Part shown: positions 4,441-59,932 of the stretch, piece after piece
Position numbering within the stretch: position 1 is the stretch's first letter
Layout: every line of letters begins with the position of its first letter
NCBI GenBank assembly: GCA_029210545.1
Contig: JARGFV010000001.1
Coordinates: 3,500-67,499, forward strand
Origin: a bacterium
GTDB lineage: Bacteria; BMS3Abin14
DNA length: 64,000 bases
Reading direction: 5' to 3'
Made by a program: the position numbers and the translations under genes
Notes under the pieces: generated by a model
The model's database searches: none
Seen by the model: only the letters and a program-made list of their open reading frames with translations
Told to the model about the DNA's origin: nothing

Positions 4441-4803
4441 GACCTTACTCTGCGCCTTTCGGTTCGGAGGCCGGGTTCGGGTGCGACGGCCTTTAGCGAT
4501 TATCGTTCCCGGTTCCTTGTCTGTAAAGACCCAAACCCGGGAACCTGTCGGAGACTCCCTGAAAGGTTCCCGGGTGTCGTATGCCGGAAAGTAATGAAAA
4601 ATGGCCTATGGCCATCAACAATTCCGGTTTGCGGATCTGGAGTGGCAACAACCAGGTGCGCATTAACCGGAAGACCCACGAATACTTTCTCCCTCCTCCC
4701 TCCTCCCTTTTACCTGCTTTTTCACACCAGGGACACTGGACTTGTAAAGGGACCGATGGTACTTTTGTTAGACCGTATACCTTGCTGATTACCGGAGGGT
4801 CCC

Positions 4804-7571: not shown

Positions 7572-8945
7572 ATGATCGGTAAACGGATAGCAGTCTGGGT
7601 GCTGGCAGGAGCGGTCCTGGTCACCCTGGGGATGCCGGGGATAGTCAAAGCCGACCCCGTGGCGGAGGCCCAGCAGCTCCAGGAGGGCGGCGATATCACC
7701 GGCGCCTACGAACTCCTCAAAAAGGCCAGCGCCGACCTGAGTGACCAACTTAAAAAGAACAAGGCTGAGTTGAAAACACAGGTTTCAGCCCTGTCGGGTG
7801 TCAAGAGCCAGGAAAAGATGGACGAGATCAGGAAAAAGAACGATGTTCTTCTGGCCGAGCGCAAAGAGCTCAAAGCTCAGCAGGACAAGGTGGACGGGGC
7901 CATGAGCCAGATGACCTCCATCCTCGATTACGCGCCCTACCGGGAAAAGGATACCGCGGAAGCTTACGCCCAGTTCATCGAGAAGTTTCCGGAGAGTCCC
8001 AACGTTGAAGAGGCTGCAACAAGGATGTATGAACTCCAGTTCACACCCTACGAGGAGGCAGCCACCACGGAAGGTTACGAGGAGTTCATCTCAAGGTATC
8101 CTGATAACCCCAACGTTCCCAAGGCCCAGGAGCTTCTGGGGGCGGCCGTCTTCAACCAGTTCAAGGACCAGGGTACGGCCGAGGCCATGCAGGCGTTCAT
8201 CAACGAATACCCCGGCAGTCCCCACGTGGCGGAGGCAGAGGTCCTGATGGTCCAGCTGCAGTATTCTCCCTACAAGGAGCTGGATACCGCTGAAGGGTAC
8301 GCCGAGTTCATTGCGGCCTATCCGGAAAACCCCAGCGTTGCCGAGGCTCAGGCGAGGATGGAGGAACTCCAGTTCCTTCCCTACAAGGAGCAGGACAGCA
8401 TCGACGGTTACACTGAATTCCTGGCTCTTTATCCGGACAACCCCGCCGCGGAGGAGGCTGCAACGAAGCTTGGCGACCTGCAGTACGCTCCCTACAAGGA
8501 GCAGAACACGGCTTCAGGTTACGCGGAATTCCTGGCCCGGTATCCGGAAAGCTCCTTTTCAGGGGAAGCGGCCGAGAGGATGAACTATCTCCAGTTCGTG
8601 GTCTACCAGGAGATGAACACTATCGACGGGTACGAAGAGTTCATCACCAGCTATCCTGAGAACAGCCACGTCGAGGAAGCCAGTTACCTTATCGAGGATC
8701 TCGAGTACGCTCCCTACCAGGAGGCCGGCACCATCGAGTCTCTCGAGGAGTTCATCGAGATGTTCCCCACGAACCGCCACGTCCAGGATGCCCGGACCGC
8801 CATAGAAGAAAAAGAAGCAGCCTCCCTTTCAGCTGAAGGTGCGGAGGACCAGCCCGCCGGGGAAGGTGAAGGGTCAGCTCCCGCCCAAGAGGCTCCGGCC
8901 GGGGGGGGAGAACCCCCGGCTGAAGAGGCGCCACCTGAAAGTTGA
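7572..8945 (+). CDS. Secreted protein with an N-terminal coiled coil, about nine tandem ~38-aa repeats (Y-x-E-x-x-T-x-x-G-Y-x-E-F-I-x-x-Y-P-x-x-P-x-V-x-E-A...LQ[FY]xP), and an acidic Pro/Ala/Glu tail
   Basis: ATG at 7572 preceded by GGAGGA. Signal peptide MIGKRIAVWVLAGAVLVTLGMPGIVKA. Repeat units read directly in the translation. Confidence 0.6.
   Translation: MIGKRIAVWVLAGAVLVTLGMPGIVKADPVAEAQQLQEGGDITGAYELLKKASADLSDQLKKNKAELKTQVSALSGVKSQEKMDEIRKKNDVLLAERKELKAQQDKVDGAMSQMTSILDYAPYREKDTAEAYAQFIEKFPESPNVEEAATRMYELQFTPYEEAATTEGYEEFISRYPDNPNVPKAQELLGAAVFNQFKDQGTAEAMQAFINEYPGSPHVAEAEVLMVQLQYSPYKELDTAEGYAEFIAAYPENPSVAEAQARMEELQFLPYKEQDSIDGYTEFLALYPDNPAAEEAATKLGDLQYAPYKEQNTASGYAEFLARYPESSFSGEAAERMNYLQFVVYQEMNTIDGYEEFITSYPENSHVEEASYLIEDLEYAPYQEAGTIESLEEFIEMFPTNRHVQDARTAIEEKEAASLSAEGAEDQPAGEGEGSAPAQEAPAGGGEPPAEEAPPES
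7928..8810 (+). repeat. Intragenic tandem repeat (~114-120 bp units) encoding the ~38-aa protein repeats
   Basis: Recurrent YxPYxExxT..GYxEF..YP..P.V.EA...LQ motif through the ORF. Confidence 0.6.
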
Positions 8946-12079: not shown

Positions 12080-12256
12080 AACTTTGATGACTTCGCAAAA
12101 AGTCATCAACGCCCCCCGCGCGGGGCGCCCAAATCAATGACTCACTCCGTAAGTCATTGATTTGTAAGGAAAGGGAAAACGACGCTTTTCCCTTTCCCCA
12201 GGACATTAATGAGCCAGGAAAAGTCCCGGATTGGACTTTTTGCGACTCTATCAACC
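12080..12256 (-). repeat. Family-1 MITE-like element, copy A (five-hairpin composite; ends in TIR GTCGCAAAAAGTCC)
   Basis: Shares the ordered hairpin modules with copies at 15654, 19683, 53773 and 57226. Confidence 0.7.
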
Positions 12257-13925
12257 TTGATGGACCCGCAATTAGTCACGCTGCGGTTTTTTCTGGTAGT
12301 TGGTTACCAATGTACGATTGACGTATCATTTTTCTGAAATCGTCCATAGTTGACGACAACAGCTCTTTGACAGCATCAATAAGTCCCAAAACAAGCTGAG
12401 AATGGGGTAAATAAGGCCCGTTGTCTTGGATTTTCCTGTTTCTGAACGTAGCGGCGCGCAGGATGTTGACACCTGTGGCCTTCAGGAAAACCGAGCAGGT
12501 CTCCTTGTCGAAGGCGGCGCTGTGGCGCTCCTTCTTGTGTTTGGTTCTCAACGGCGCATGGCCTTGAGGACAGGAGGTGACCTTCCCTCTCTTGGCCAGG
12601 GTGAAATCGGTGAGGCTTACACTCTTGTCCTTGCCGGGCTCCGGCCCCTTGACGGGCGAGACGACCTCGACGCTCATCTCGCTCGCTGCCTTCTCGACGT
12701 TCTCGTCGCCCCCATAGAGGGTGTCGGCCAGAACCTCCTCGGGACCCAGGTCCCGGTTCTTCGTATCCTCGATGAAGGGGATCAGGGCCTTGGCGTCACT
12801 CTTGTTGGCGGGTTCGACCGATATGTGGGTTATCAGGGAAGGCTGGCTCTTCTCCTCGCTGTTCTCGTAGGTCTCGGCGACCTGTACCTGGTAGCCCTTG
12901 CCCTTGTGCCCACTGTAGCCGGCGTCAGGGTCGGAAGGGCTTTGCAGGGAGTCGGAGGGAACGTCACGGTTGGGTTTGACCGAGGCCTTCCTCTTACCGG
13001 TCTCCCCGTCATCCTCGACAATGCACTGTTCCTTGAGAAGCCTCACCAGAAGCTGGTAGCTGGTCATGGAGGATATGCCGGGAAGTTTGCGGAACCGATC
13101 CACCAGGTAAAACAGGTCATTGGCCAGAGTCTCAAGGGTCCTGGATGACTCGGACGGCTTGACCATGGAAAAAGCCGACTCGCCCTTTTTGGACATGTAA
13201 CGGTCGGTCAGTTCCTTGTCCAGAACATCAAACAGACCCTTGTGGTGACGCTTCAGGTTGCGCAGGAACTTCTTGATAGTGGCGACAAACAGGCCGACGC
13301 GGCCCAGATGACGCATGTTCGACTGTATGTGTACCGAGTCGATGCGCTGCTTGCTGGTGTCGACATTGAACACCACGGCAAGCTTGGCGGTCACGGACTC
13401 GAACAGGGGAAGGTAGAGGTTGTGTTCGGTAAGGATCTTCCGTATGCTCCACAGTGTTTTGGGACTGACATAGGCCTCCTCATCCGACTCACCGGTGATA
13501 TTCAAGGCGTAATGCCACTTTTTGTTGAAAGTAAACTGGTCAACCGCATCGTCATCGGTCAGATCGTGCATCTGCTGGAGGATCATCAGGCCCAGCATGG
13601 CGTATAGCTCCTTGGTGGGACGACCTTGAAGCTCGCTGTAGTGTAGGAGGAGCTTTTGAACCGGCAGTTCAGGAAGGACCTCCTCCCTGAACAGATGAGC
13701 CCAGGAGCTCTCCAGAAGCTTGCGGCGCCTGGGGCCTAAATGCTCGAAAGGATCGAACATGTCGAGGGTTTTGTAGTCTTTGGTATGGAACATGGCAACT
13801 CCTCGCAACTCATTGATTTCGTTGGCATATTCCACCATAAACCACGCCCCGTTAAAAGGAAAAACAACCTTTTATCCATGGTTTTCAAATAGTTGGAAGA
13901 ATGATACTTTTTGCGATGCCGTCAA
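12257..13925 (-). mobile_element. Insertion sequence, boundaries approximate, carrying one transposase gene
   Basis: Single 520-aa transposase ORF flanked by noncoding DNA. Ends were not resolved, and no clean inverted repeats were identified by eye. Confidence 0.4.
12276..13838 (-). CDS. IS transposase (IS5/IS1182-like; DDE family with an N-terminal DUF772-like region)
   Basis: Length and layout match this family. The C-terminal region has a Cys-rich motif (SCPQGH...C). Confidence 0.6.
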   Translation of the reverse strand: MVEYANEINELRGVAMFHTKDYKTLDMFDPFEHLGPRRRKLLESSWAHLFREEVLPELPVQKLLLHYSELQGRPTKELYAMLGLMILQQMHDLTDDDAVDQFTFNKKWHYALNITGESDEEAYVSPKTLWSIRKILTEHNLYLPLFESVTAKLAVVFNVDTSKQRIDSVHIQSNMRHLGRVGLFVATIKKFLRNLKRHHKGLFDVLDKELTDRYMSKKGESAFSMVKPSESSRTLETLANDLFYLVDRFRKLPGISSMTSYQLLVRLLKEQCIVEDDGETGKRKASVKPNRDVPSDSLQSPSDPDAGYSGHKGKGYQVQVAETYENSEEKSQPSLITHISVEPANKSDAKALIPFIEDTKNRDLGPEEVLADTLYGGDENVEKAASEMSVEVVSPVKGPEPGKDKSVSLTDFTLAKRGKVTSCPQGHAPLRTKHKKERHSAAFDKETCSVFLKATGVNILRAATFRNRKIQDNGPYLPHSQLVLGLIDAVKELLSSTMDDFRKMIRQSYIGNQLPEKTAA

Positions 13926-14948: not shown

Positions 14949-15650
14949 ATGAAATGGGTCCTGGTGATCGAGGCGTCTGAGATGGACAGGGAATACCTGG
15001 AGAGGGTGATCGGCAGGCTGGGGTATCAGATCTACTCCGCGATCAGCGGTGAGGAAGCCATCCACTTCATGAACCAGAGCCTGCCCCACGCCCTCGTCGT
15101 GGGAGAACGGATCCCGGATTGCGATCCCCTGGATCTGGGCCGGACGATCAGGAAGGACCGTATCCTTTCGGGCCCTCCCATGCTCCTCATGAGTTCCAGA
15201 AAGGACCACCTGTTTAATGAAAAAGCCCGGCAGGCGGGGTTCGCCGAGATCGTGCACCGGCCCATGTCCATCCGGAAGTTCTTTACCAGCCTTGAACTGT
15301 GCCTCTCCAACAACCGCAGGATCTATATCCGCGCTCCCATGGCCATTCCCGTCCTGTTGAGGAGCGCCGCCTCAAAGCTGTCCCTGACGACCCACAATTT
15401 TGGGGAAGGAGGCATGTATATCCAGACAGTGAACCCGCTGCCTTCCGGGACCGAGGTAGATCTTGATTTCAACCTTCCCGGACTTCGCAACAGTTTCAGT
15501 TTCCGGAGCCAGGTAATGCACACCCAGTCAAGGGGCACAGACGAACTGCCCGCCGGGATGGGGCTCAGGTTCCTGGATATCAAACCGGCTATCGAGACGA
15601 TCTTCAGAATCTTCATGGAGAACTTCCTGGCCAAACGGATGGCAGCGTGA
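14949..15650 (+). CDS. Receiver-like domain fused to a PilZ domain
   Basis: CheY-like N-terminal fold; the phospho-acceptor position may be degenerate. The C-terminus has RIYIR and NFGEGG PilZ motifs. Confidence 0.55.
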   Translation: MKWVLVIEASEMDREYLERVIGRLGYQIYSAISGEEAIHFMNQSLPHALVVGERIPDCDPLDLGRTIRKDRILSGPPMLLMSSRKDHLFNEKARQAGFAEIVHRPMSIRKFFTSLELCLSNNRRIYIRAPMAIPVLLRSAASKLSLTTHNFGEGGMYIQTVNPLPSGTEVDLDFNLPGLRNSFSFRSQVMHTQSRGTDELPAGMGLRFLDIKPAIETIFRIFMENFLAKRMAA

Positions 15651-15653
15651 TGT

Positions 15654-15858
15654 TACAGGGTCGCAAAAATGTCCAGGCGGGACTACTGTTAACCGCCAAA
15701 GTCCGTGCGGGCCTTCGGCTCAAGGGAAGGCGAAAAGCGTCGTTTCCGCCTTCCTCACCGAGACTGCTGATAATCACCGACATGTTTGCCGGTCACTGAT
15801 CTATGCGCCCCGCGCGGGGCGCATAGATGGACTTTCTGCATGTCCATCAACTTTGCAG
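15654..15858 (+). repeat. Family-1 MITE-like element, copy B (diverged middle)
   Basis: Starts 4 nt after the stop of the REC-PilZ gene. Carries the conserved end hairpins and the GCGCCCCGCGCGGGGCGC palindrome. Confidence 0.6.
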
Positions 15859-19538: not shown

Positions 19539-19967
19539 CTAGGAATCTGTCGGAGAACCTCCCTGTTTTTAACAGGGAGGGCACAGACTCCTAGCTGGAG
19601 TTTGTCGGAACATATTTTTTTGAGTCTTTTTTTATATAATACCTTGTGTTAACAATGACTTGCAATCTTCACCCGCAACTTTGACAGGGTCGCAAAAAGT
19701 CCAATCCGGGACTTTTCGCTCCACGGAAAGGGAAAAGCGTCATTTTCCCTTTCCTCACGGATCGCTGACATGATTTCCGGTCATCGATCCGGGCGCCCTT
19801 CCCAAGCGCGGCTAGTCATTGATTTGGGCGCCCCGCGCGGGGCGCGTTGATGACTTTTTGCGGGTCCATCAACTTTATCACCTGTTGATCTGAAGGCAAA
19901 AAGCATTAGAAAAGTCGTTCCGACAAACTTTTACGCAGCGTGTCAGGGTTTTCCGACACGCTGCTAG
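19539..19967 (+). repeat. Family-2 MITE-like element, copy a, carrying a nested family-1 element
   Basis: Left TIR/hairpin CTAGGAATCTGTCGGAGAACC...GACTCCTAG. Right end CAGCGTGTCAGGGTTTTCCGACACGCTGCTAG. Internal sequence matches the copy at 59563. Confidence 0.65.
19683..19880 (+). repeat. Family-1 MITE-like element, copy C (nested in family-2 copy a)
   Basis: Begins GACAGGGTCGCAAAAAGTCC and ends GACTTTTTGCGGGTCCATCAAC. Contains all five hairpin modules. Confidence 0.75.
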
Positions 19968-20240
19968 CGTGACGAAGACGGACCTGTCACGCCATAGCTC
20001 GTAGAGCGACAGCGGAAGCCATTAGCGACGCCCCAAAGCTAAGACGGAAGACGCAGGCAATCTGGAGCCTTTCGAGGATCACAAGAGTGCACCAGATACG
20101 AGGCTCGACTGAGGAGCCAACTGGAGGCGTATATGGAACATACTTCGAGGTTGCCGACGATGGAGTACGAAGCCCATTAGGGTCCCGAGCGAAGTCGAGG
20201 GATAGATGGCGTGCTATTGGGAGCCGTTATTACCCCCCCC
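19968..20240 (+). repeat. Family-3 dispersed repeat, copy 1
   Basis: Segment 20186-20233 matches 59145-59189 in inverted orientation with 5 mismatches in 45 nt. Further blocks match with indels. Confidence 0.55.
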
Positions 20241-28164: not shown

Positions 28165-29160
28165 TTACTGCCTACTGATTACTTTTCTCAGCACCCACAT
28201 CCCCTTCTCATCTGTGTAGCTTTGCACTCTTCCATCCACAACCTCGACCTGGAGCTGCTTTCCGATGCCGGGTGAGGCCTCGAGAAACCTTTCCTCCAGA
28301 GCCTTCACACCTTTATCTTCCAGTCCGACCCTCCGTGCCCACTCCTCGAAGGGATGGGTACGGCTGAACAGATCAAAAGAGACGACCTCCAGACCAGCCT
28401 GGGCGATCAACCCTGCCCACCCATTGACCGTATCCGACCTGACGTGACTCGGATCACGCTGTCGCTCCACCTCGTTGAGGAACCTGTCACATTCCGGGTC
28501 ATCTGGAACGATACTGTCGATGATCACGGCACAGCCATCCCTGGCCAGGACACGCCTGACCTCGCGCAGGAAATTTTTCAGGGAGGGGAAATGATGTGGC
28601 GCGACGCGGCAGGTCAGAAGCTGGATACAACCGTTACCTAGGAGCCTGTCGGAGAACCCCATGCAGGCTCCTAGATATAGTTTTTCGGAAGTAGCATTTA
28701 GACCGAAAAAAACAAATATATGGCACATTTGGTAATTCACCGGAGTTATTTACCGGTTTAATGCTCTTGTTTTCAAGAAAAGACCCAAAAAAGGGCTTTC
28801 CGAAAAACCTACAGCAGCGTGTCAAGAGGTTTTCCGACACGCTGCCAGGGGCAGGTTCTCGGCCGACGACTGGACCAGCATCAGGTCCGTGATCCCGATC
28901 CCGGCAAGGTGTGTCCTCGTCACCTGGAGCATCTCCATGGTCAGGTCCAGCCCAATGCAGCGGCCCGACAGGGGAGCCGCCGCTCTTAACGCATGTCCGG
29001 CTCCCGTCGCGACATCCACGGTCAATGCCGGGCAATGCTCATACGCCACCTTCCGGATAAGGGCAAGGTCCGGTCCCGTTCCATGATCGGAACTCGAAAG
29101 ATATCTGTCGGCACTTGCCGAGAAGGTATTCCGCGGATCACTGCTCCGGGCGGAGGTCAC
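28165..29160 (-). pseudogene. Class I SAM-dependent methyltransferase (UbiE/Methyltransf_11-like) split by a family-2 MITE
   Basis: N-terminal half (motif I VDVATGAGHA ... SSAENLPL) runs from a GTG start at 29160 to 28846. GTG and the rlmD stop share the GTGA overlap. C-terminal half (GNGCIQLLTCRVAPHHF ... ) resumes at 28638. Removing 28639-28845 (207 nt) rejoins both halves in frame. Confidence 0.7.
28638..28848 (+). repeat. Family-2 MITE-like element, copy b, inserted in a methyltransferase gene
   Basis: Left hairpin CTAGGAGCCTGTCGGAGAACCCCATGCAGGCTCCTAG. AT-rich core. Right hairpin CAGCAGCGTGTCAAGAGGTTTTCCGACACGCTGCC. Confidence 0.75.
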
Positions 29161-32438: not shown

Positions 32439-32605
32439 GCCTTTGTCCCTTTTCCTCAATCTTTCCTTCCTCCCTGGAAGGAGATTGAGGGAATATGGAA
32501 TGTGGAAGGTAGAAGGTAGAAGGTGGAAGAAGAGAAAAAGAACGACACCCATGCTTTTCTTCCCTATTCCCTATTCCTCATTCCCTGTTCCGATTTCTCC
32601 CTTCC

Positions 32606-35404
32606 CTATTCCCTATTCCCCCTTCCCCATTCTTTTTTTAACCCCACGGTCTTGTACATGAAATTCCTGAACCTGGTCATCGCCTCCCCCTCCTCGCGGC
32701 TGTCTGCAGGCAGGGCGCCGAGATGGCGGGCGGCCCCTCTCACCCCTCCCCCCTCGGCAAGGGCCAGCCTGTAAATTTCCAGGACAGTCCCGCGAGTCAG
32801 GTCCCGGGACATGAATGGGATGTGGACGAGCTCCCAGAAATCGCCCGCTCCCTTGCGGATCTGCCCGTAGATCGCCGCGGCGTCTCCCTGGACATTCTTG
32901 CCGTCAAGGGTGGAGAGGGAAAGAAACCTCTGGATCTCGTCCACCCCCACGATCCCGTCATCGCTTTCGAAGAGAGCTCCCTGCAGGATGGTCACAAGCT
33001 GGCGGATATTTCCGGGGAAGTCGAGATGGGAGATAAACTCCTCGGCCTCCGGCGTGATGACGGGCGGCGCGCCCCCGGCTGAATAACTCGCATGGAGACG
33101 ACCCAGGAAGTGTTTGGCCAGATCGGGGATGTCCTCCCGCCTGTCCCTGAGGGAGGGAACCCGGAGGGTCATCTCGCTGAGCCGATGGTAAAGATCCTCC
33201 CGGAAGGCACCCCTTGCGATCTCCCTTGCCAGGTCCCGGTTGGTGGCGGCGACAAAAACGACCCTGCTGAGCCGGACCTTGGTTCCTCCCAGCCGTGAAA
33301 ACTCTCCCGAATCCAGGAAGCGCAGCAGCTGGACCTGGGTCTTGAGATCAGCGTCGCCGATCTCATCGAGGAAGACCACCCCTCCGTCCGCCTCCTCGAG
33401 GATTCCCGTCCGGTCGACATGGGCACCTGTATAGGCCCCCTTCTGGTGCCCGAACAGTTCAGTAAAGGTGAGATCTCCACTGAAAGCGGCGATATTGGTT
33501 TTGCGCAGGGGCAGTTCCAAAGCACCCCCGCCCAACTTTCTGAACTTTTCGTTGACCAGGCTGTACAGGTTGTTGAACACGAACTCCTTGCCGGCCCCCG
33601 TCTCCCCCGTTATGAGAAGGGTCGGCAGCCCCAGCTCCAGTTCCTTCTCTTTACCGCGGCTCCAGTTAAGGAGCCTGTTGGTCAAAGGTTCGGCCAGCCT
33701 GCTGATCCGCTTGACCAGGAGCTGCGAGTGGGCGCTCTTGCCGATGATATTCCCGAGCAGGTAGGAACTGACACCGGGGTCCTTGTAGGAGACCTCCTTG
33801 CGCAGCCTCGCCACCTTTCCCTCGAGTTCACTGATCTTCAGATGGTCGGCGATGCGGTTGGCGATGAGGCGGGATATGAGAAGGAGGATGCGCTGGTGTT
33901 CGACAGTGAAATAGGCCCGACGGTGGCTGTCCAGGTTGACCACTCCGAGGACCGATTCACCTAACCTGATGGGGACCGCGAGTTCCGAAGCCACGTCAGC
34001 GGCAAGGTTCCGGTAGAACCCTCCCCTGGCCGTTTCGGCATCCGTATCCGGACAAAGGTACGGTTTTCCCGTGAAAGCCACATACCCCGTCAGAGAGCGT
34101 TCCTCGGCAGGGAGTTCCTCACCACCCACCCTCAGATCGGGGATCTTCGCCTTTCTCCAGTCACGGGATTTGCCCCCCACCAGCCGCCCTTCGGCGTCAT
34201 CGACGACAAGCCACTTCTCCTGGTTCCGTTCGGTCACCAAAGCGATGGAGCCCGATTCGGCGCCTACCAACTCCACAGCGCGGGAGGCGACCTTGCCCAG
34301 GAAGACCGGCATGGGAGCGTCCTCGGCGAGAAGCTCCTCGATCTCCGAAAGGACACGTATTTCGAGGTGTCCCACCGCGAAGTCAGTGATACCTGCCGCC
34401 AGGGAACTCGAATGGCTCATGAGGAGTTTGAGTTCCGGCTCGGTGAACCTGTGGGGGCGCTTCGTAAAATAGTTGATGACGCAAGTCACCTCGCCCCCCT
34501 CCCCGGAGACGGGGATCATGAGGAGGGTGCGCAGGGAAAGCCTCTTGAACACCTCCCACCGCTCGAACTCCTCTGCCAGGATATCCTCGAAAAAAAGGAC
34601 CTGGGGGGCACCCGGGCGCCGGAGGACGCGGTCGCCATCGGGCATGACCAGGCGGGAAAGGAGGCTTTTGCCCTCGAGGAGGCTGATTCTCTCGAGGGTC
34701 TCGTAGATCTGGAGATCCGACGGGTCCCGGGAGGCGGCAGCCAGGATCTCCATGTACCCCCCTCTCTCCCGCTTGAGGACTTCGGGCACCGGAGACTGCG
34801 CCGATATCAGGACCGATGTCATATCGATGGCAAGGTCGATCTCGAAGGCACCTTTGAGAAGTATCCTGGCGGCATCCCTTTTCCTGGACCGGTCCAGCTG
34901 CCGGCTGAGCATGATCCGCCTGTTGAACCGGTGGGCCCTGGCGAGAATGGGCATGATCCTATTGAGGAGCTGCCGCAGTTCCTGCTTCATGTCCGACAAG
35001 AGGGCATGACTCTCGGCGGCGTCCACGGTCAGGGCACCGATGCAGTTGCCTGCATCCACGAGGGGGAAAACCGTCGCCACAGACAGGCCGCGCCGTTCGT
35101 ACCACTCCCGGTGGAGTTCGTCACTGCCCTCCCCGAGGGGGGCATCCGTCACGATCTTCGATTCCAGGAACGACCGGACGAGGGGGTTCTCCCGTCTCTG
35201 GATAGGGATACGGGCTCCCTTCCTCTCCAGTTCTCCCTCCGGCGTGTAAAGGCACAGGAGAGCGCCCTCCCGCATATCCTCCAGGTAGACACGGATCGAG
35301 GGTACCCCGGTTCTCAGGGTCACCTCCTTGACCAGGTAGTGAAGGATGTCGAGAAGGTTCTCCTTGTCGAAGGAAAGGATCTGGTCAACGAAGGACATCA
35401 GCAT
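32606..35404 (-). CDS. Sigma-54-dependent transcriptional activator with multiple N-terminal GAF domains
   Basis: AAA+ sigma54-interaction domain with Walker A GETGAGKE and a GAYTGA variant of the GAFTGA loop. Start at MLMSF (35404) after GGGGGAG. Confidence 0.8.
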   Translation of the reverse strand: MLMSFVDQILSFDKENLLDILHYLVKEVTLRTGVPSIRVYLEDMREGALLCLYTPEGELERKGARIPIQRRENPLVRSFLESKIVTDAPLGEGSDELHREWYERRGLSVATVFPLVDAGNCIGALTVDAAESHALLSDMKQELRQLLNRIMPILARAHRFNRRIMLSRQLDRSRKRDAARILLKGAFEIDLAIDMTSVLISAQSPVPEVLKRERGGYMEILAAASRDPSDLQIYETLERISLLEGKSLLSRLVMPDGDRVLRRPGAPQVLFFEDILAEEFERWEVFKRLSLRTLLMIPVSGEGGEVTCVINYFTKRPHRFTEPELKLLMSHSSSLAAGITDFAVGHLEIRVLSEIEELLAEDAPMPVFLGKVASRAVELVGAESGSIALVTERNQEKWLVVDDAEGRLVGGKSRDWRKAKIPDLRVGGEELPAEERSLTGYVAFTGKPYLCPDTDAETARGGFYRNLAADVASELAVPIRLGESVLGVVNLDSHRRAYFTVEHQRILLLISRLIANRIADHLKISELEGKVARLRKEVSYKDPGVSSYLLGNIIGKSAHSQLLVKRISRLAEPLTNRLLNWSRGKEKELELGLPTLLITGETGAGKEFVFNNLYSLVNEKFRKLGGGALELPLRKTNIAAFSGDLTFTELFGHQKGAYTGAHVDRTGILEEADGGVVFLDEIGDADLKTQVQLLRFLDSGEFSRLGGTKVRLSRVVFVAATNRDLAREIARGAFREDLYHRLSEMTLRVPSLRDRREDIPDLAKHFLGRLHASYSAGGAPPVITPEAEEFISHLDFPGNIRQLVTILQGALFESDDGIVGVDEIQRFLSLSTLDGKNVQGDAAAIYGQIRKGAGDFWELVHIPFMSRDLTRGTVLEIYRLALAEGGGVRGAARHLGALPADSREEGEAMTRFRNFMYKTVGLKKEWGRGNRE

Positions 35405-49467: not shown

Positions 49468-49501
49468 CAGCAGCGTGTCGGGGCACTTCGACACGCTGCG
49501 G
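49468..49501. repeat. Solo hairpin matching the family-2 MITE right end, between the regulator and speH
   Basis: CAGCAGCGTGTCGGGGCACTTCGACACGCTGCGG. Confidence 0.5.
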
Positions 49502-49503
49502 AA

Positions 49504-50055
49504 TTAATGAAAAACGGGAGGCGACACAACCCAGAGGATGGTCGCCGTCCTTTTACCCAGGTTCTCGATCGTATGCGGCCTGTCAGACTTGAAATAGAAA
49601 CTTTCTCCCTTGCGCACCCGATGGACGGTTTTGCTTCCTTCCATCCTGAGCTGGACCGTTCCGGAAAGGAGCATGCCGAACTCTTCCCCCTCGTGCCCGC
49701 TGTCGATGGAGGCCTTGCCTGGTTCAATGGTCACCAGGACAGGGTCCATCAGGTTCTTCTGGGCTCCGGGGATCAGGAGTTCGATGGTCTCTTCATCGTG
49801 ATCTCCCTCCAGGACGACCCTGTCCTTTTCCCCGAACACGATCTTCTGCTCTCCCAGCTCCATCACCTTGAAAAACTCCGACAACGGTATCCCGAGAACT
49901 TCAAGGATCTGGCTGAGGGCCTCGATGGAGATCGATGTGAGATCCCTTTCGAGCTGGGAGATAAAACCTTTCGTCAGGTCGGCCCTCTGGGCAAGTTCGT
50001 CCTGGGTCAGGTCGTTGGCGATGCGAAGCCGCTTGATCCTCTGGCCTATCTTCAA
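49504..50055 (-). CDS. XRE-family HTH plus cupin transcriptional regulator (PuuR-like)
   Basis: HTH_3 motif [24 protein letters not shown]-terminal cupin beta-barrel. Confidence 0.8.
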
Positions 50056-53725: not shown

Positions 53726-53772
53726 AACCTCTCCTCAAAAAACGGAGCGGTTTTAAGTAAAATTCCAAATTT

Positions 53773-53932
53773 GATAGGGTCGCGAAAAGTCCAATCCGGG
53801 ACTTTTCGCTCCACGGAAAGGGGAAAGCGTGGTTTTCCCTTTCCTTATAAATCAATGACTTACAGTGTGAGTCATTGATTTGGGCGCCCCGCGCGGGGCG
53901 CGTTGATGGACTTTTTGCGAGTCCATCAAATT
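53773..53932 (+). repeat. Family-1 MITE-like element, copy D
   Basis: GATAGGGTCGCGAAAAGTCC ... GGACTTTTTGCGAGTCCATCAAA. All five hairpins present. Confidence 0.75.
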
Positions 53933-54591
53933 TCGGTTCATCACAATAATGCGTACCTGTGTGTTGTCACTCCAGGACTCTTAAAGGCGATCACCACGGA
54001 GCACACAAAGAAAGCCTGAACCTGGGGGAAGACTCAGGCGCGCACCGCAAAACCCCTGAACCCTGGCGCGAAGCGCCCTTCGATCACGCCGTTGGCGTGA
54101 TAAAGCCGGGCGGAGCGGCCTTTAGCTGACCGCGCTCCCCAGAATCTCGATTGAATTGATTTTCGAGATTCTGGGGATAAAAAAACCCCATTGGCGTGGT
54201 AAGTTACGTTTCAAGCTTGAAACGACCCATGACACAATGACAGCCCATGCCGGTCTGGCCCGGGCGAGTTCGCGGAAGGGAGCAGGCTTCCCTTTCTGGT
54301 GGACCGTCACCTGCCGTTGCCCGGCAGCGGGGCCGGTTATCGTCCGTCGGAGTTCGTGATGCCATACCCGAAATTCGCCGAAAGCGCCCTTTCGGTCGGG
54401 GCTGGACGGTCAACGAGTGACGTAGGGCGGCAAGTTCAACAGCAACACGGCTCCATGCAAAAAATAGCCCCCTCAATGCCCCGACCGGAGGCCAGCCAAA
54501 ACCAATCGCGGATTTCGGGTGGTTAGTTGGCTTTTTCCTGCAATAGCGTTAATAACTGTTTTTTAGCTGTTAGCTGCCTGTTGGAGATCCA

Positions 54592-55938: not shown

Positions 55939-56229
55939 ATGAAAAAACGCATTTCCCGACAAATTTTCAAGCAGCGTGCCGAGGTTTCCAGGCACGCTGC
56001 TCGGGAACTGTCCGGAGGGTGGGCGGTGTTACTGCTGATCATCACAGTACTCATGGCCCTGGCCGTCGGCTGGCACCGCGAGATCGCCTCCAGATACCCG
56101 ATATCGGACCTGCCCTTCGTGGATCTTCAGCGTCTTTCAAATCAGATCGAATCGGGCAACGTCGGTAAAACAGGAGCGCTGTATTACAGGAAAAGTGATG
56201 CTGGGGCTGATACCACCGAGATCCGTTGA
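55939..56229 (+). CDS. Small hypothetical single-TM protein (doubtful)
   Basis: ORF with one hydrophobic helix. A MITE-type hairpin lies at its 5' end and the 3' end overlaps the radical SAM gene. Confidence 0.2.
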   Translation: MKKRISRQIFKQRAEVSRHAARELSGGWAVLLLIITVLMALAVGWHREIASRYPISDLPFVDLQRLSNQIESGNVGKTGALYYRKSDAGADTTEIR

Positions 56230-57187
56230 GTGCACCTTGTGCCCGAAATTGTGCCGCCTGGCCGAGGGCCAGCGCGGGGATTGCCGGGTACGGTACAACG
56301 ACGGGGGGAACCTTTACTCCCTTGTCTACGGGAAAGTGTGCTCGGTCCATGTCGATCCTGTGGAAAAGAAACCGATGTACCATTTCCTCCCGGGCTCCGG
56401 GGCCTTTTCCGTTGCCACCGCCGGATGCAACCTCCACTGCCTGTTCTGCCAGAATTGGGAGATATCCCAGGCCGATCCGGAGGATCTCAACAATTCCGAT
56501 CTGCCTCCGGAAAAAGCCGTAACCCTGGCTGCCAAAGCCGGTTGCGCTTCCATCGCCTATACCTATTCGGAACCTGTGATCTTTTACGAATATCTGGAGG
56601 ATACCGCCGCCCTGGCCCGGGAAAGGGGCATCCGCAACATCATGGTCACCGCGGGGTTCATCAACCGGGACCCCCTCCGCCGCCTCTGCAAGATCGTGGA
56701 CGGCGCCAACGTGGACCTGAAGGGGTTCACGGAAAAATATTACAGGGAAGTCTGTTTCGGGAACCTGCGCACCGTCCTGGACACCCTGGTCACCATGCGG
56801 AAAGAGGGTGTCGTCCTTGAAGTGACCAACCTCATCGTTCCCACCCTCAACGACGGGATGAACACCATCAGCCAGATGTGCCGGTGGATTGTGTCCGAAC
56901 TGGGAGACGAGGTGCCCCTTCATTTTTCCCGCTTCTCACCCATGTACCGGCTCAAGGACCTTCCGCCCACCCCCGTCCAGACCCTGAGAAGGGCACGGGA
57001 GACCGCCCTGGAGGCGGGGCTGAAGTACGTGTACACGGGCAACGTGCCCGGGGACCCCGGGGAGGACACCTTCTGTCCCTCCTGCGGGAAGATGGTCATC
57101 GACCGCCACGGGTACCGCATCCTGAAGTACGACGTGGTGGACGGGAAGTGTAAATATTGCGGCCAAAAAATCTACGGATTATTTTAG
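56195..57187 (+). CDS. amrS: AmmeMemoRadiSam system radical SAM enzyme
   Basis: Radical SAM Cx3Cx2C CNLHCLFCQNWEIS. N-terminal CTLCPKLC cluster. C-terminal CPSCG...CKYCG zinc ribbon. PFL-activase-like length. Confidence 0.8.
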   Translation: MMLGLIPPRSVECTLCPKLCRLAEGQRGDCRVRYNDGGNLYSLVYGKVCSVHVDPVEKKPMYHFLPGSGAFSVATAGCNLHCLFCQNWEISQADPEDLNNSDLPPEKAVTLAAKAGCASIAYTYSEPVIFYEYLEDTAALARERGIRNIMVTAGFINRDPLRRLCKIVDGANVDLKGFTEKYYREVCFGNLRTVLDTLVTMRKEGVVLEVTNLIVPTLNDGMNTISQMCRWIVSELGDEVPLHFSRFSPMYRLKDLPPTPVQTLRRARETALEAGLKYVYTGNVPGDPGEDTFCPSCGKMVIDRHGYRILKYDVVDGKCKYCGQKIYGLF

Positions 57188-57225
57188 GCCGCAGCACGAA
57201 GCGCAAAGTTCGAAGAACGAAGGAA

Positions 57226-57380
57226 GATGGACTCGCAAAAAGTCCATCAACGCACCCCGCGCGGGGTGCCCAAATCAATGACCTGTACCGTAAGTCATTG
57301 ATTTGTAAGGAAAGGGAAAACGACGCTTTTCCCTTTCCGTTGAGCAAAAAGTCCCGGATCGGACTTTTTGCGACCCTGTC
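57226..57380 (-). repeat. Family-1 MITE-like element, copy E, between amrS and the amrB-amrA fusion
   Basis: Reverse-orientation copy with all modules. Ends GGACTTTTTGCGACCCTGTC. Confidence 0.75.
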
Positions 57381-57454
57381 AAGGAAGAGCTTGCAAAAAA
57401 GTCCTTCCATTGAATCATTCCCTTTGTTCTTAAGTAACATGAGGGCAACCTAAA

Positions 57455-59125
57455 ATGAAACATAACGCGTCAAATCCGGACAAAAAAAGCAAAGGAAATA
57501 GCAGCGACCTCCCTTCGCGCTTCGCTCTTCGCGCTTCGTGCTGTCCTGACTTTACGAAGGGTATACAGATAATATCGAGAAGGGACCTGATTCGTATGTT
57601 CGCAGGTCTTTCAATAATTGCACTCGTCCCATTCCGCTGGTCGGTTCGTAAAGTCAGGACTTCCGTGAGCCGGAAGGAAGCGTCCTTTTACAGGAAGCTG
57701 GTCGTCGCCGGGGTCTGCCTCCTCCCACTGGCCCTCACCCCTTCCATTGCTTCCGCAAAATCAGTGTTTGAGCCCGTTGTCGCTGGCGGGTTCTACCCGG
57801 CCGACGCGGCAAAGCTGCGAGCCCTGGTGCGCTCCTGCATCGACAGCGCCGGCCTGCCGTCGGTCAAGGGGGAGATCCTGGGCCTCGTCGCCCCCCATGC
57901 CGGTTACGTCTATTCCGGGCCGGTGGCCGGGTACGCCTACAGGGAGCTCAAGGGCAGGAAGTACGACATCGTTGTCATCATGGCCCCGTCCCACACCGCC
58001 CCCCTGAACGGGGTGTCCATCCTGGATGTGGACGCCTACCGCACACCGCTGGGGGAGGTTCCTGTCGACAGGAAATCGGTGCGGGCCCTCATCGACCAGA
58101 TCCCATGGATCAGCCACGTCCCGGCCCTTTTCACCCGGGAGCACTCCATGGAGGTCCAGCTGCCGTTCCTCCAGGTGGCCCTCGAGCCGGGCTTTTCCAT
58201 CGTCCCTGCCGTCATGGGAACGGCGGACCCCGACCTTGCCACCGCCTTCGCCACTGTACTGGCCCGCCAGTTCCGGGGCCGGAAAGTCCTTTTCGTGGCC
58301 AGTTCCGACATGTCCCACTATCTGGAGTACGATGCGGCCAAAATCAAAGACACCGGAACCCTGAAGATCATCGGCAACGGGGAGATCGACACATTATATC
58401 GCCGGTGTTCCACCCGGGAATCGGAGCTGTGCGGCCTGGGCCCGGTGCAGACGGTCATGCACCTCGCCGAAAAGATGGGGATCGAGGGGGGGACACTGCT
58501 CAGGTACTCCAACTCCGGTGACACCGCGGGAAACCGGACAAGGGTGGTGGGGTACGGCTCCTTCGCTTTCGTGAACCCGGCAGGGGAGCTGGCCCTGGCC
58601 GACAAGCAGGCCCTTTTGGTCCTGGCCCGGAATACCCTGGAGCAGTACGTGCGGACCGGCAAACGTCCCGACATCGTGCCCGGCTCATCGGCACTAAAGG
58701 AACCAGGGGCTGCTTTTGTCACCCTGAAGCGCCGGGGTGAGCTGCGTGGCTGCATCGGCCAGCTGAGGCCCACCATGCCCCTCTATCAGTCCGTGGTGGA
58801 GATGGCGGTCTCCTCGTGCAGCAGGGACATGCGCTTTACGCCGGTCAAGGCTGAAGAGCTTCCCGATATCCGGGTCGAGGTCTCGGTGATGTCGCCCTTC
58901 ATGAAGGTGGGCGGCGTCGAGGAGGTCGAGGTGGGGCGGGACGGCCTTTACCTGACCTGGCATGGAAGGAGCGGCGTGCTCCTGCCACAGGTCCCGGGAG
59001 AGCAGGGGTGGGACAGGGGGGAGTATCTCAAGGCGATCTGCAGGAAGGCGGGGCTGCCGGATAAGACATGGGAGAAACCTGGCGCAGAGCTTTACAGGTT
59101 TAGCGCCCAGGTGTTCAGTGAGTAA
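57455..59125 (+). CDS. Fused AmmeMemoRadiSam system protein B (Memo-like) and protein A (AMMECR1 domain), with an N-terminal extension of ~105 aa
   Basis: Memo region LVAPHAGYVYSGPVAGYAY ... SSDMSHY. AMMECR1 region GELRGCIGQLRP ... LLPQV. The N-terminal extension contains a hydrophobic, signal-peptide-like segment. True start is uncertain. Confidence 0.75.
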   Translation: MKHNASNPDKKSKGNSSDLPSRFALRASCCPDFTKGIQIISRRDLIRMFAGLSIIALVPFRWSVRKVRTSVSRKEASFYRKLVVAGVCLLPLALTPSIASAKSVFEPVVAGGFYPADAAKLRALVRSCIDSAGLPSVKGEILGLVAPHAGYVYSGPVAGYAYRELKGRKYDIVVIMAPSHTAPLNGVSILDVDAYRTPLGEVPVDRKSVRALIDQIPWISHVPALFTREHSMEVQLPFLQVALEPGFSIVPAVMGTADPDLATAFATVLARQFRGRKVLFVASSDMSHYLEYDAAKIKDTGTLKIIGNGEIDTLYRRCSTRESELCGLGPVQTVMHLAEKMGIEGGTLLRYSNSGDTAGNRTRVVGYGSFAFVNPAGELALADKQALLVLARNTLEQYVRTGKRPDIVPGSSALKEPGAAFVTLKRRGELRGCIGQLRPTMPLYQSVVEMAVSSCSRDMRFTPVKAEELPDIRVEVSVMSPFMKVGGVEEVEVGRDGLYLTWHGRSGVLLPQVPGEQGWDRGEYLKAICRKAGLPDKTWEKPGAELYRFSAQVFSE

Positions 59126-59400: not shown

Positions 59401-59562
59401 TACTTTCTGATATTCGGGAACGGCACTGTACCGGTTTGCCGCTCAGGTTTTTCCGGGATGATCCAAAATCCTGATTTCACCGGAGAGAACGCGAAAGAGG
59501 TCGTACTGTGGTAAGTTAGCCTTTGACCTCCTTTGTAAGCTTTGCCATTCACCTAGGAGTCT

Positions 59563-59722
59563 GTCGGAGAACCTCATACAGACTCCTAGCTGGAGTTTAT
59601 CGGAAAATGGCATGTTTAAAAAAACCAAGCAATTCGGATAGTTACAACCGACTTTAATAAAAAGAATCATCTTCCGACAAACATATCTAGCAGCGTATCG
59701 GGGTTTTCCGACACGCTGCTAG
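59563..59722 (+). repeat. Family-2 MITE-like element, copy c
   Basis: CTAGGAGTCTGTCGGAGAACCTCATACAGACTCCTAG ... CAGCGTATCGGGGTTTTCCGACACGCTGCTAG. Confidence 0.75.
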
Positions 59723-59932
59723 GGTGTCATTCAAATCATATAGTAACGTTAAATATCCTTCCTGTGTCCGATCCAGAGAACCACTACCTCAGCCTTTCCC
59801 TGACCCCACAGTCTACCCGACGTACAGTTTTTCCCTTGCATGGATTCCCCTAAAAAGAGGTTGGACCGCGACTTGCAAACTCAGGGGTGAAATCAGTGAT
59901 TTGCGACGGTTCGAATTCGAAAAAAGGAGGAA

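Follow-up and report, generated by a model that had tools for sequence, protein, structure and literature searches.

The 64,000-nucleotide stretch analysed here (the window) contains five copies of a palindrome-rich intergenic sequence, which raises the question of whether such a string of hairpins is mobile DNA, a structured repeat of the REP type or a set of signals read in RNA. The initial annotation, made from the letters alone, had described the sequence as a MITE-like non-autonomous transposable element or REP-like structured repeat and had added that the stacked hairpins could serve as transcription terminators or RNA-processing sites. The evidence presented below indicates that the repeats are very probably non-coding type II MITEs of about 155 bp that carry the ends of an IS1182-like DDE insertion sequence.

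Structure and setting of the five copies

Reading and alignment of the five copies (c1 to c5; Table 1) showed that all five carry the same palindromic modules in the same order, in two orientations, with c1 and c5 reversed. The sequences flanking them are unrelated; hence the copies did not come from a single larger duplication, the origin that the initial annotation had set against its own reading. The modules are strongly over-represented in the window relative to dinucleotide-preserving shuffles of it: the GC hairpin has 9 matches (0.04 expected), the GGAAAGGGAAAA...TTTTCCCTTTCC hairpin 4 (0 expected), the terminal motif 7 (0.5 expected) and AATCAATGACT 8 (0.7 expected). Outside the five copies no composite module was found in the window, a stray 11-mer with one mismatch at 13808 being at chance level. 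The alignment and the over-representation together bear out the claim of five copies with common ordered modules. The boundaries in Table 1 were set by a script check of the five window copies; the coordinates given initially were right to within 4–10 nt, their ends having run into the flanking target duplications.

Table 1. Coordinates of the repeat copies, their flanking target sequences, the parts of copy c3 and the adjacent insertion sequence
Feature	Position	Strand	Description
Copy c1	12086-12252	-	167 bp; canonical, with five hairpins and a 13-nt insert following hairpin 1
Flanks of c1	12080-12085; 12253-12258		+ strand AACTTT; AACCTT (element strand AAGGTT / AAAGTT); 5/6 match
Insertion sequence	12259-13923	-	defective, IS1182-like; 1665 bp
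Transposase ORF	12276-13838	-	DDE type; Pfam DUF772 and DDE_Tnp_1 matches
Copy c2	15654-15848	+	195 bp; extra inserts totalling ~40 nt
Copy c3	19683-19870	+	188 bp; the copy initially flagged
Target duplication of c3	19677-19682; 19871-19876		AACTTT; perfect
c3 left terminal repeat	starts 19683	+	reads GACAGGGTCGCAAAAAGTCC
c3 hairpin 1	19691-19719
c3 hairpin 2	19725-19754
c3 hairpin 3, divergent	19759-19790		followed by a degenerate GC hairpin
c3 canonical hairpin 3	19814-19825		3' arm only
c3 hairpin 4	19828-19845		GC hairpin
c3 hairpin 5	19846-19873		right-end hairpin; extends 3 nt into the flanking AAC
Copy c4	53773-53927	+	155 bp; canonical
Target duplication of c4	53767-53772; 53928-53933		AAATTT; perfect
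Copy c5	57226-57380	-	155 bp; canonical
Target duplication of c5	57220-57225; 57381-57386		AAGGAA (+ strand; TTCCTT on the element strand); perfect

The five ordered hairpins that had been ascribed to every copy are present in canonical form only in c1, c4 and c5. In c3 the third hairpin is divergent, and this copy looks like a recombinant of two subfamilies. Copy c2, with an insert of roughly 29 nt after hairpin 1 and smaller ones elsewhere, is an older, more diverged copy. Canonical copies measure 153–157 bp and variants up to 195 bp, which is too small for a transposase gene (the related transposases are ~580 aa long) and within the size that defines MITEs (PMC10969869); the initial statement that the element has no coding capacity therefore holds.

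All five copies are intergenic, as first described, and copies of the element often lie 4–70 nt past stop codons. Copy c2 has its start 4 nt past the TGA that ends a response-regulator/PilZ gene (14949-15650), indicating that its insertion target overlapped the stop codon. Copy c5 occupies a 267-nt gap between a radical-SAM gene (stop at 57187) and a fused AmmeMemoRadiSam B/A gene (start at 57455), and is antisense to these two co-directional AmmeMemoRadiSam neighbours.

Other repeats were also noted in the window. Copies of a second intergenic family lie at 19583-19613 plus 19935-19971, 28636-28852 and 59551-59726, with further sites at 4535-4589, 49470-49506 and 55971-56007; its left module reads TAGGAGNCTGTCGGAGAACC...CTCCTAG...GTTTNTCGGAA, and a hairpin, GCAGCGTGTCNGGGTTTTCCGACACGCTGC, forms the right module. 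One of these second-family copies appears to have received c3 in its variable centre, the spacing there being 321 nt as compared with 81–122 nt in uninterrupted copies. The remaining repeats are a diverged array at 7935-8666 with 111-nt spacing, comprising five copies of a 177-nt unit that are 60–70% identical (D1), and a pyrimidine-rich, CTTCCCTATTCC-like tandem repeat with a 21-nt period at 32559-32632 (D13), to which the TCC-rich tracts at 4686, 16027 and 25980 are similar (family D14).

Terminal repeats, target duplications and the partner insertion sequence

The element is bordered by terminal inverted repeats of roughly 20 bp (GAYRGNNTCGCAAAAAGTCC), longer than the 14 bp initially proposed. 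The two ends, GAYAGGGTCGCAAAAAGTCC and GGACTTTTTGCGAGTCCATC, are complementary at about 17 of 20 positions in canonical copies, and the right end reads GATGGACTCGCAAAAAGTCC when reverse-complemented. Perfect 6-bp duplications flank 10 of 35 non-redundant full-length copies, as against 1.2 expected and a maximum of 6 when the flanks were permuted 5000 times. The target consensus is AAYNTT, and its two variable middle positions agree in 14 copies (3.9 expected). No repeat length other than 6 bp fitted among the 35 full-length copies. In the window, c2 was the one copy with no recognisable duplication, its flanks reading TGATGT and AACTTT. These duplications indicate that the element was transposed in the past by an enzyme whose cuts are staggered by 6 bp.

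The initial annotation had proposed to look for a transposase whose IS has ends like the terminal inverted repeats, and such a gene was found 6 bp from c1. The ends of this IS gene resemble the element termini and were picked up by the inverted-repeat search; between the IS and c1 there is only the 6-bp sequence AACCTT. The IS reads GACGGCATCGCAAAAAGTAT at its left end (13923 down to 13904) and GATGGACCCGCAATTAGTCA at its right end (12259-12278). The encoded transposase lacks residues 435–508 of its intact relatives and has lost the match to domain PF13751. This IS copy is a relic and, being internally deleted, cannot be the current source of transposase.

Exact look-up of the window transposase and of P0001 returned no match, and the relatives were obtained by homology search. 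The intact relatives are single ORFs of ~580 aa with the domains PF05598, PF01609 and, as an additional DDE domain at the C-terminus, PF13751, the combination that characterizes IS1182 transposases, and many of them are located on contigs of ~1.9 kb, as is typical of collapsed IS contigs. The best NCBIfam model for these transposases was that of the IS1182 family (NF033551), matched over nearly the whole profile, with scores of 173–184 bits for intact relatives and 116 bits for the window copy, all below the curated cut-off of 270. The closest annotated plasmid homologues, sharing less than 36% identity, are annotated as IS1182 family.

The ends of the intact IS, read from several fetched contigs of relatives, are GAYGGNNTCGCAAAAAGTATCATTC (left) and, after reverse complementation, GAYRGNNYCGCAAYWAGTCA (right). 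One intact relative, L003, has AATCTT on both sides, a perfect duplication with which the 6-bp duplications of the element agree. The right terminus of the element matches the IS left end at 18 of 20 positions in L003, 19 of 20 in L044 and 15 of 20 in the window IS. Both element termini fit the IS left end best, and the idea that they derive from different IS ends was therefore dropped. Beyond the termini, comparison of the element with the IS gave only short matches at chance level; since the similarity is confined to the termini, the element is a type II MITE as defined in PMC10969869. The description as a MITE-like non-autonomous element is thus upheld by the matching IS ends and the 6-bp duplications, from which past mobility of the element may reasonably be deduced.

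Several findings count against parts of this assignment. For the pairing of MITE and IS, the sole IS in the window is defective, and an intact copy was seen only in contigs of relatives. For the placement in the IS1182 family, the duplication is 6 bp, as compared with 4 bp in ISPse1, a captured IS1182-family element (PMC3281130), and in the ISMac2 MITEs. In view of the duplication length, the score below the cut-off with low identity to the annotated plasmid homologues, and the differences in host lineage, we use the name IS1182-like for the partner and refrain from assigning it to the family.

In the mechanism that we propose, i) an intact IS copy encoding the ~580-aa transposase would supply the enzyme in trans, ii) the transposase would bind the conserved TCGCAAAAAGT core of both element ends, and iii) it would cut at the GA...TC termini and integrate the element with a 6-bp stagger.

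An IS end and an element end lie exactly 6 bp apart both in the window (12253-12258) and at an unrelated site, L043. The order at L043 (2060-2335) is AAAGTT, IS, AAAGTT, element, AAGATT and the reverse complement of the IS right end. Such abutment suggests either that an insertion took place in the target copy next to an end already present or that the two form a composite unit, and the L043 arrangement could be an assembly artefact.

Internal hairpins and their possible roles

RNA and DNA folding both predicted five consecutive local hairpins (z = -8.7 and -8.9, respectively), the RNA fold having an energy of -88 kcal/mol. In hairpin 1 the inner half of the left terminal repeat, CGCAAAAAGTCC, precedes an inverted copy of itself, and in hairpin 5 the right terminal repeat pairs with a short inverted repetition of its tip that lies upstream; hairpins 2 to 4 have no counterpart in the IS. 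Hairpins 1 to 4 were scored on an alignment of 33 distinct copies, and hairpin 5, the register of which shifts between variants, was folded copy by copy only; most copies form it. In hairpins 1 to 4, 91.5% of the stem cells were paired and 11 pairs had changed on both sides. None of 500 shuffles reached the observed values of pairing and covariation and slid controls collapsed, but the copies are related, so that the shuffle control overstates their independence. Three pairs of hairpin 3 are variable, and at least 7 different combinations of them retain full complementarity. The minor-allele fraction was 0.091 in stems and 0.204 in the unpaired columns of loops and spacers (p = 4e-5). The pairing, the double changes and the conservation of stems indicate that hairpin complementarity is maintained.

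Which process maintains it is a separate matter. In the stems, G·U pairs and A·C mismatches are balanced (45 versus 51), and since hairpins 1 to 4 are compensated without strand or orientation bias, the constraint, if selective, is most likely exerted on DNA, either double-stranded or single-stranded for a short time. It thus lies either at the DNA level or in a mechanism that maintains palindromes. The options that remain are a DNA-level role in transposition, in which the palindromes may help a very short, stiff element to bend or to synapse its ends, and non-selective matching of the arms by template switching within the palindromes.

According to the non-selective explanation, gene conversion or template switching within a strand is what conserves the hairpins, the interior is neutral, and the element as a whole is purely selfish DNA. 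We regard this as possible but somewhat doubtful. The symmetry of complementarity between the strands accords with it, and the rearrangement in c3, partial duplications and the tandem arrays (L021) show that the palindromes recombine readily; moreover, it can hold together with the MITE explanation, from which it departs only as regards the interior. On the other hand, the roughly twofold higher variation of loops and spacers fits a constraint on stem sequence as well as on the matching of arms, and the module order has been kept across lineages that differ at many sites.

The selective counterpart is that the internal palindromes, as hairpins or cruciforms and possibly with an IHF-type bend at hairpin 3, may be required for a 155-bp element to bring its two ends into synapsis for a DDE transposase, and that an element end with its AAYNTT duplication may be a preferred target in its own right, so that IS and MITE ends accumulate 6 bp apart and arrays are built up. 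We put this forward only as a tentative and rather unlikely proposal. In 25 of 33 copies the IHF core pattern ATCAANNNNTTR fits the 5' arm of hairpin 3, but on a single strand, and we treat this as a lead from pattern matching and not as evidence. A putative IHF site in the IS was rejected as evidence as well, the motif being inside coding sequence and lost in L042 and L043.

The proposal that the hairpins act in RNA fared less well. It would make the element a host-domesticated structured RNA (a terminator, a 3' block of hairpins that stabilises mRNA, or a site of RNase processing) that was spread by transposition and is maintained through its transcript. The position of many copies shortly after stop codons, the great stability of the predicted RNA fold and the conserved stems with compensatory changes would all suit such a role, and like roles are known for other bacterial MITEs (PMC10969869). 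However, in a consensus terminator scan only two weak matches touched the copies (hairpin 4 of c1 and hairpin 5 of c4), the totals were near shuffle expectation (10 versus 8.8 and 9 versus 5.8), and no U-tract adjoins any hairpin within the element. Between co-directional genes, as judged from a crude longest-ORF rule and not from a gene caller, the two orientations of the copies were split about evenly. An RNA read from a single strand should favour G·U over A·C, and the two are roughly equal. Copy c5 lies within a presumed operon, where a terminator would be harmful. In Rfam the sole match in the window was a tRNA, the best permissive match to the element scoring 20.9 bits, where the threshold is 79. 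With neither a strand bias nor an orientation bias, only weak terminator matches and no Rfam family, the suggestion of terminators or processing sites is not supported, and we consider a domesticated RNA improbable.

It is scarcely credible that the repeats are of the REP/REPIN or BIME type, spread by a RAYT (Y1) transposase or by recombination and not by a DDE IS, for although they are intergenic, palindrome-rich and modular and include a GC-rich hairpin, they have 6-bp target-site duplications and terminal inverted repeats that match the ends of a DDE IS, no solo modules occur in the window, and the adjacent transposase is of the DDE type. We know of no REP/REPIN elements with target duplications or with borders of IS-type inverted repeats; the duplications and inverted repeats thus speak against the REP-like half of the initial description.

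Distribution, related elements and significance

Genome and metagenome collections were scanned with two different parts of the element, and relatives were found in two other MAG species (uncultured bacteria) and on 28 metagenome contigs. A profile search of all fetched sequence gave 75 matches, 36 of them full length; beyond the window, nhmmer gave 68 matches (31 full length) on 37 further contigs. With five copies in 64 kb, the flanks of which are unrelated, and others on outside contigs, the element is a dispersed multi-copy family. Tandem arrays of the element occur at L021 (3393-4058) and also at L034, L015 and L031. The L021 array has a 171-nt unit repeated 3.9 times with 90% match; its internal units have an altered right end, and the canonical terminal repeat is present only in the last unit.

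A sister MAG (GCA_032250785.1), with flanks ~99% identical, has the IS and copies c1, c2, c3 and c5 at the same sites, so that these four of the five copies are fixed insertions and not recent ones. Contig ends of this MAG fall within or next to c1, c3 and c5, as repeats would be expected to cause. Copy c4 is missing from it, but the missing block (window 53767-54161 compared with L045 11117-11593) is 389 nt long and comprises 228 nt of unique sequence besides the element and one 6-bp repeat. One boundary of this indel is the left terminus of c4; the other, 228 nt past the element, falls within a hairpin (CCCCAGAATCTCGA...TCGAGATTCTGGGG). The indel could be an element-associated deletion or an assembly difference; as it does not correspond to the element plus 6 bp, it is not a precise empty site, and none was recovered. 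Among the fetched loci the search for an empty allele gave only tandem-array artefacts, and within the window the host repeat family of c3 is too variable at its centre to define a precise junction. A sister species with 81% PBP2 identity has no element in 11.8 kb, but different genes lie downstream of its rodA, so that it is uninformative on this point.

MITEs partnered with IS1182-family elements have already been described, and the present family is a further one, which in functional terms resembles any other type II MITE. The ISMac2-associated MITEs of Methanosarcina acetivorans are 160–169 bp long, with repeats of 25–26 bp and either 4-bp duplications or none (Kamoun et al. 2013, PMC3852290). 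Compared by description only, they resemble the present element in size (155 bp here), in being multi-copy and non-coding and in sharing their inverted repeats with an IS1182-type element, but the present element has ~20-bp repeats and 6-bp AAYNTT duplications. Moreover, its host is an uncultured bacterium and not an archaeon, and its putative transposase is below the curated IS1182 cut-off. Chunjie, a MITE found in Geobacter uraniireducens (Chen et al. 2008, according to the summary in PMC10969869), is 178–235 bp long, has conserved terminal repeats and direct repeats and is mostly intergenic, with size variants, partial copies and one copy inside an operon. By description it is similar to the present element in its size variants and its intra-operon copy (c5 here), but five conserved internal hairpins do not figure in the Chunjie summary given in that review.

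The Correia elements of Neisseria (NEMIS) are likewise short MITEs: they have terminal inverted repeats, are predicted to fold very stably and abound in intergenic regions. According to the summary in PMC10969869 they have a proven IHF site, whereas here there is the one-strand pattern match in hairpin 3. Correia elements function through RNA pairing of their two terminal repeats, RNase III cleavage and built-in promoters; the present element differs in forming five local hairpins, and a promoter scan found no promoter-like site within the copies. BOX and BIME mosaic repeats share with it the arrangement of ordered palindromic modules in intergenic DNA, but their modules vary in number and combination and lack IS-type ends or target duplications, unlike the fixed module order, the absence of solo modules from the window and the IS-type ends and duplications seen here. 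The string of five well-kept, strand-symmetric hairpins is the one unusual feature of the element.

For annotation, these data imply that the five sites and the relic IS should be described as mobile-element DNA and not as regulatory RNAs or terminators, and the element copies explain the assembly breaks at these positions in this lineage. The family also offers an IS1182-like transposase naturally matched to a short non-autonomous element, with defined ends (core TCGCAAAAAGT) and a defined 6-bp target, AAYNTT. To our knowledge, elements of the IS1182 type have been little studied, and the MITE/IS pair would therefore be convenient for biochemical work. If the hairpins act at the DNA level, DNA secondary structure may aid the transposition of very short elements.
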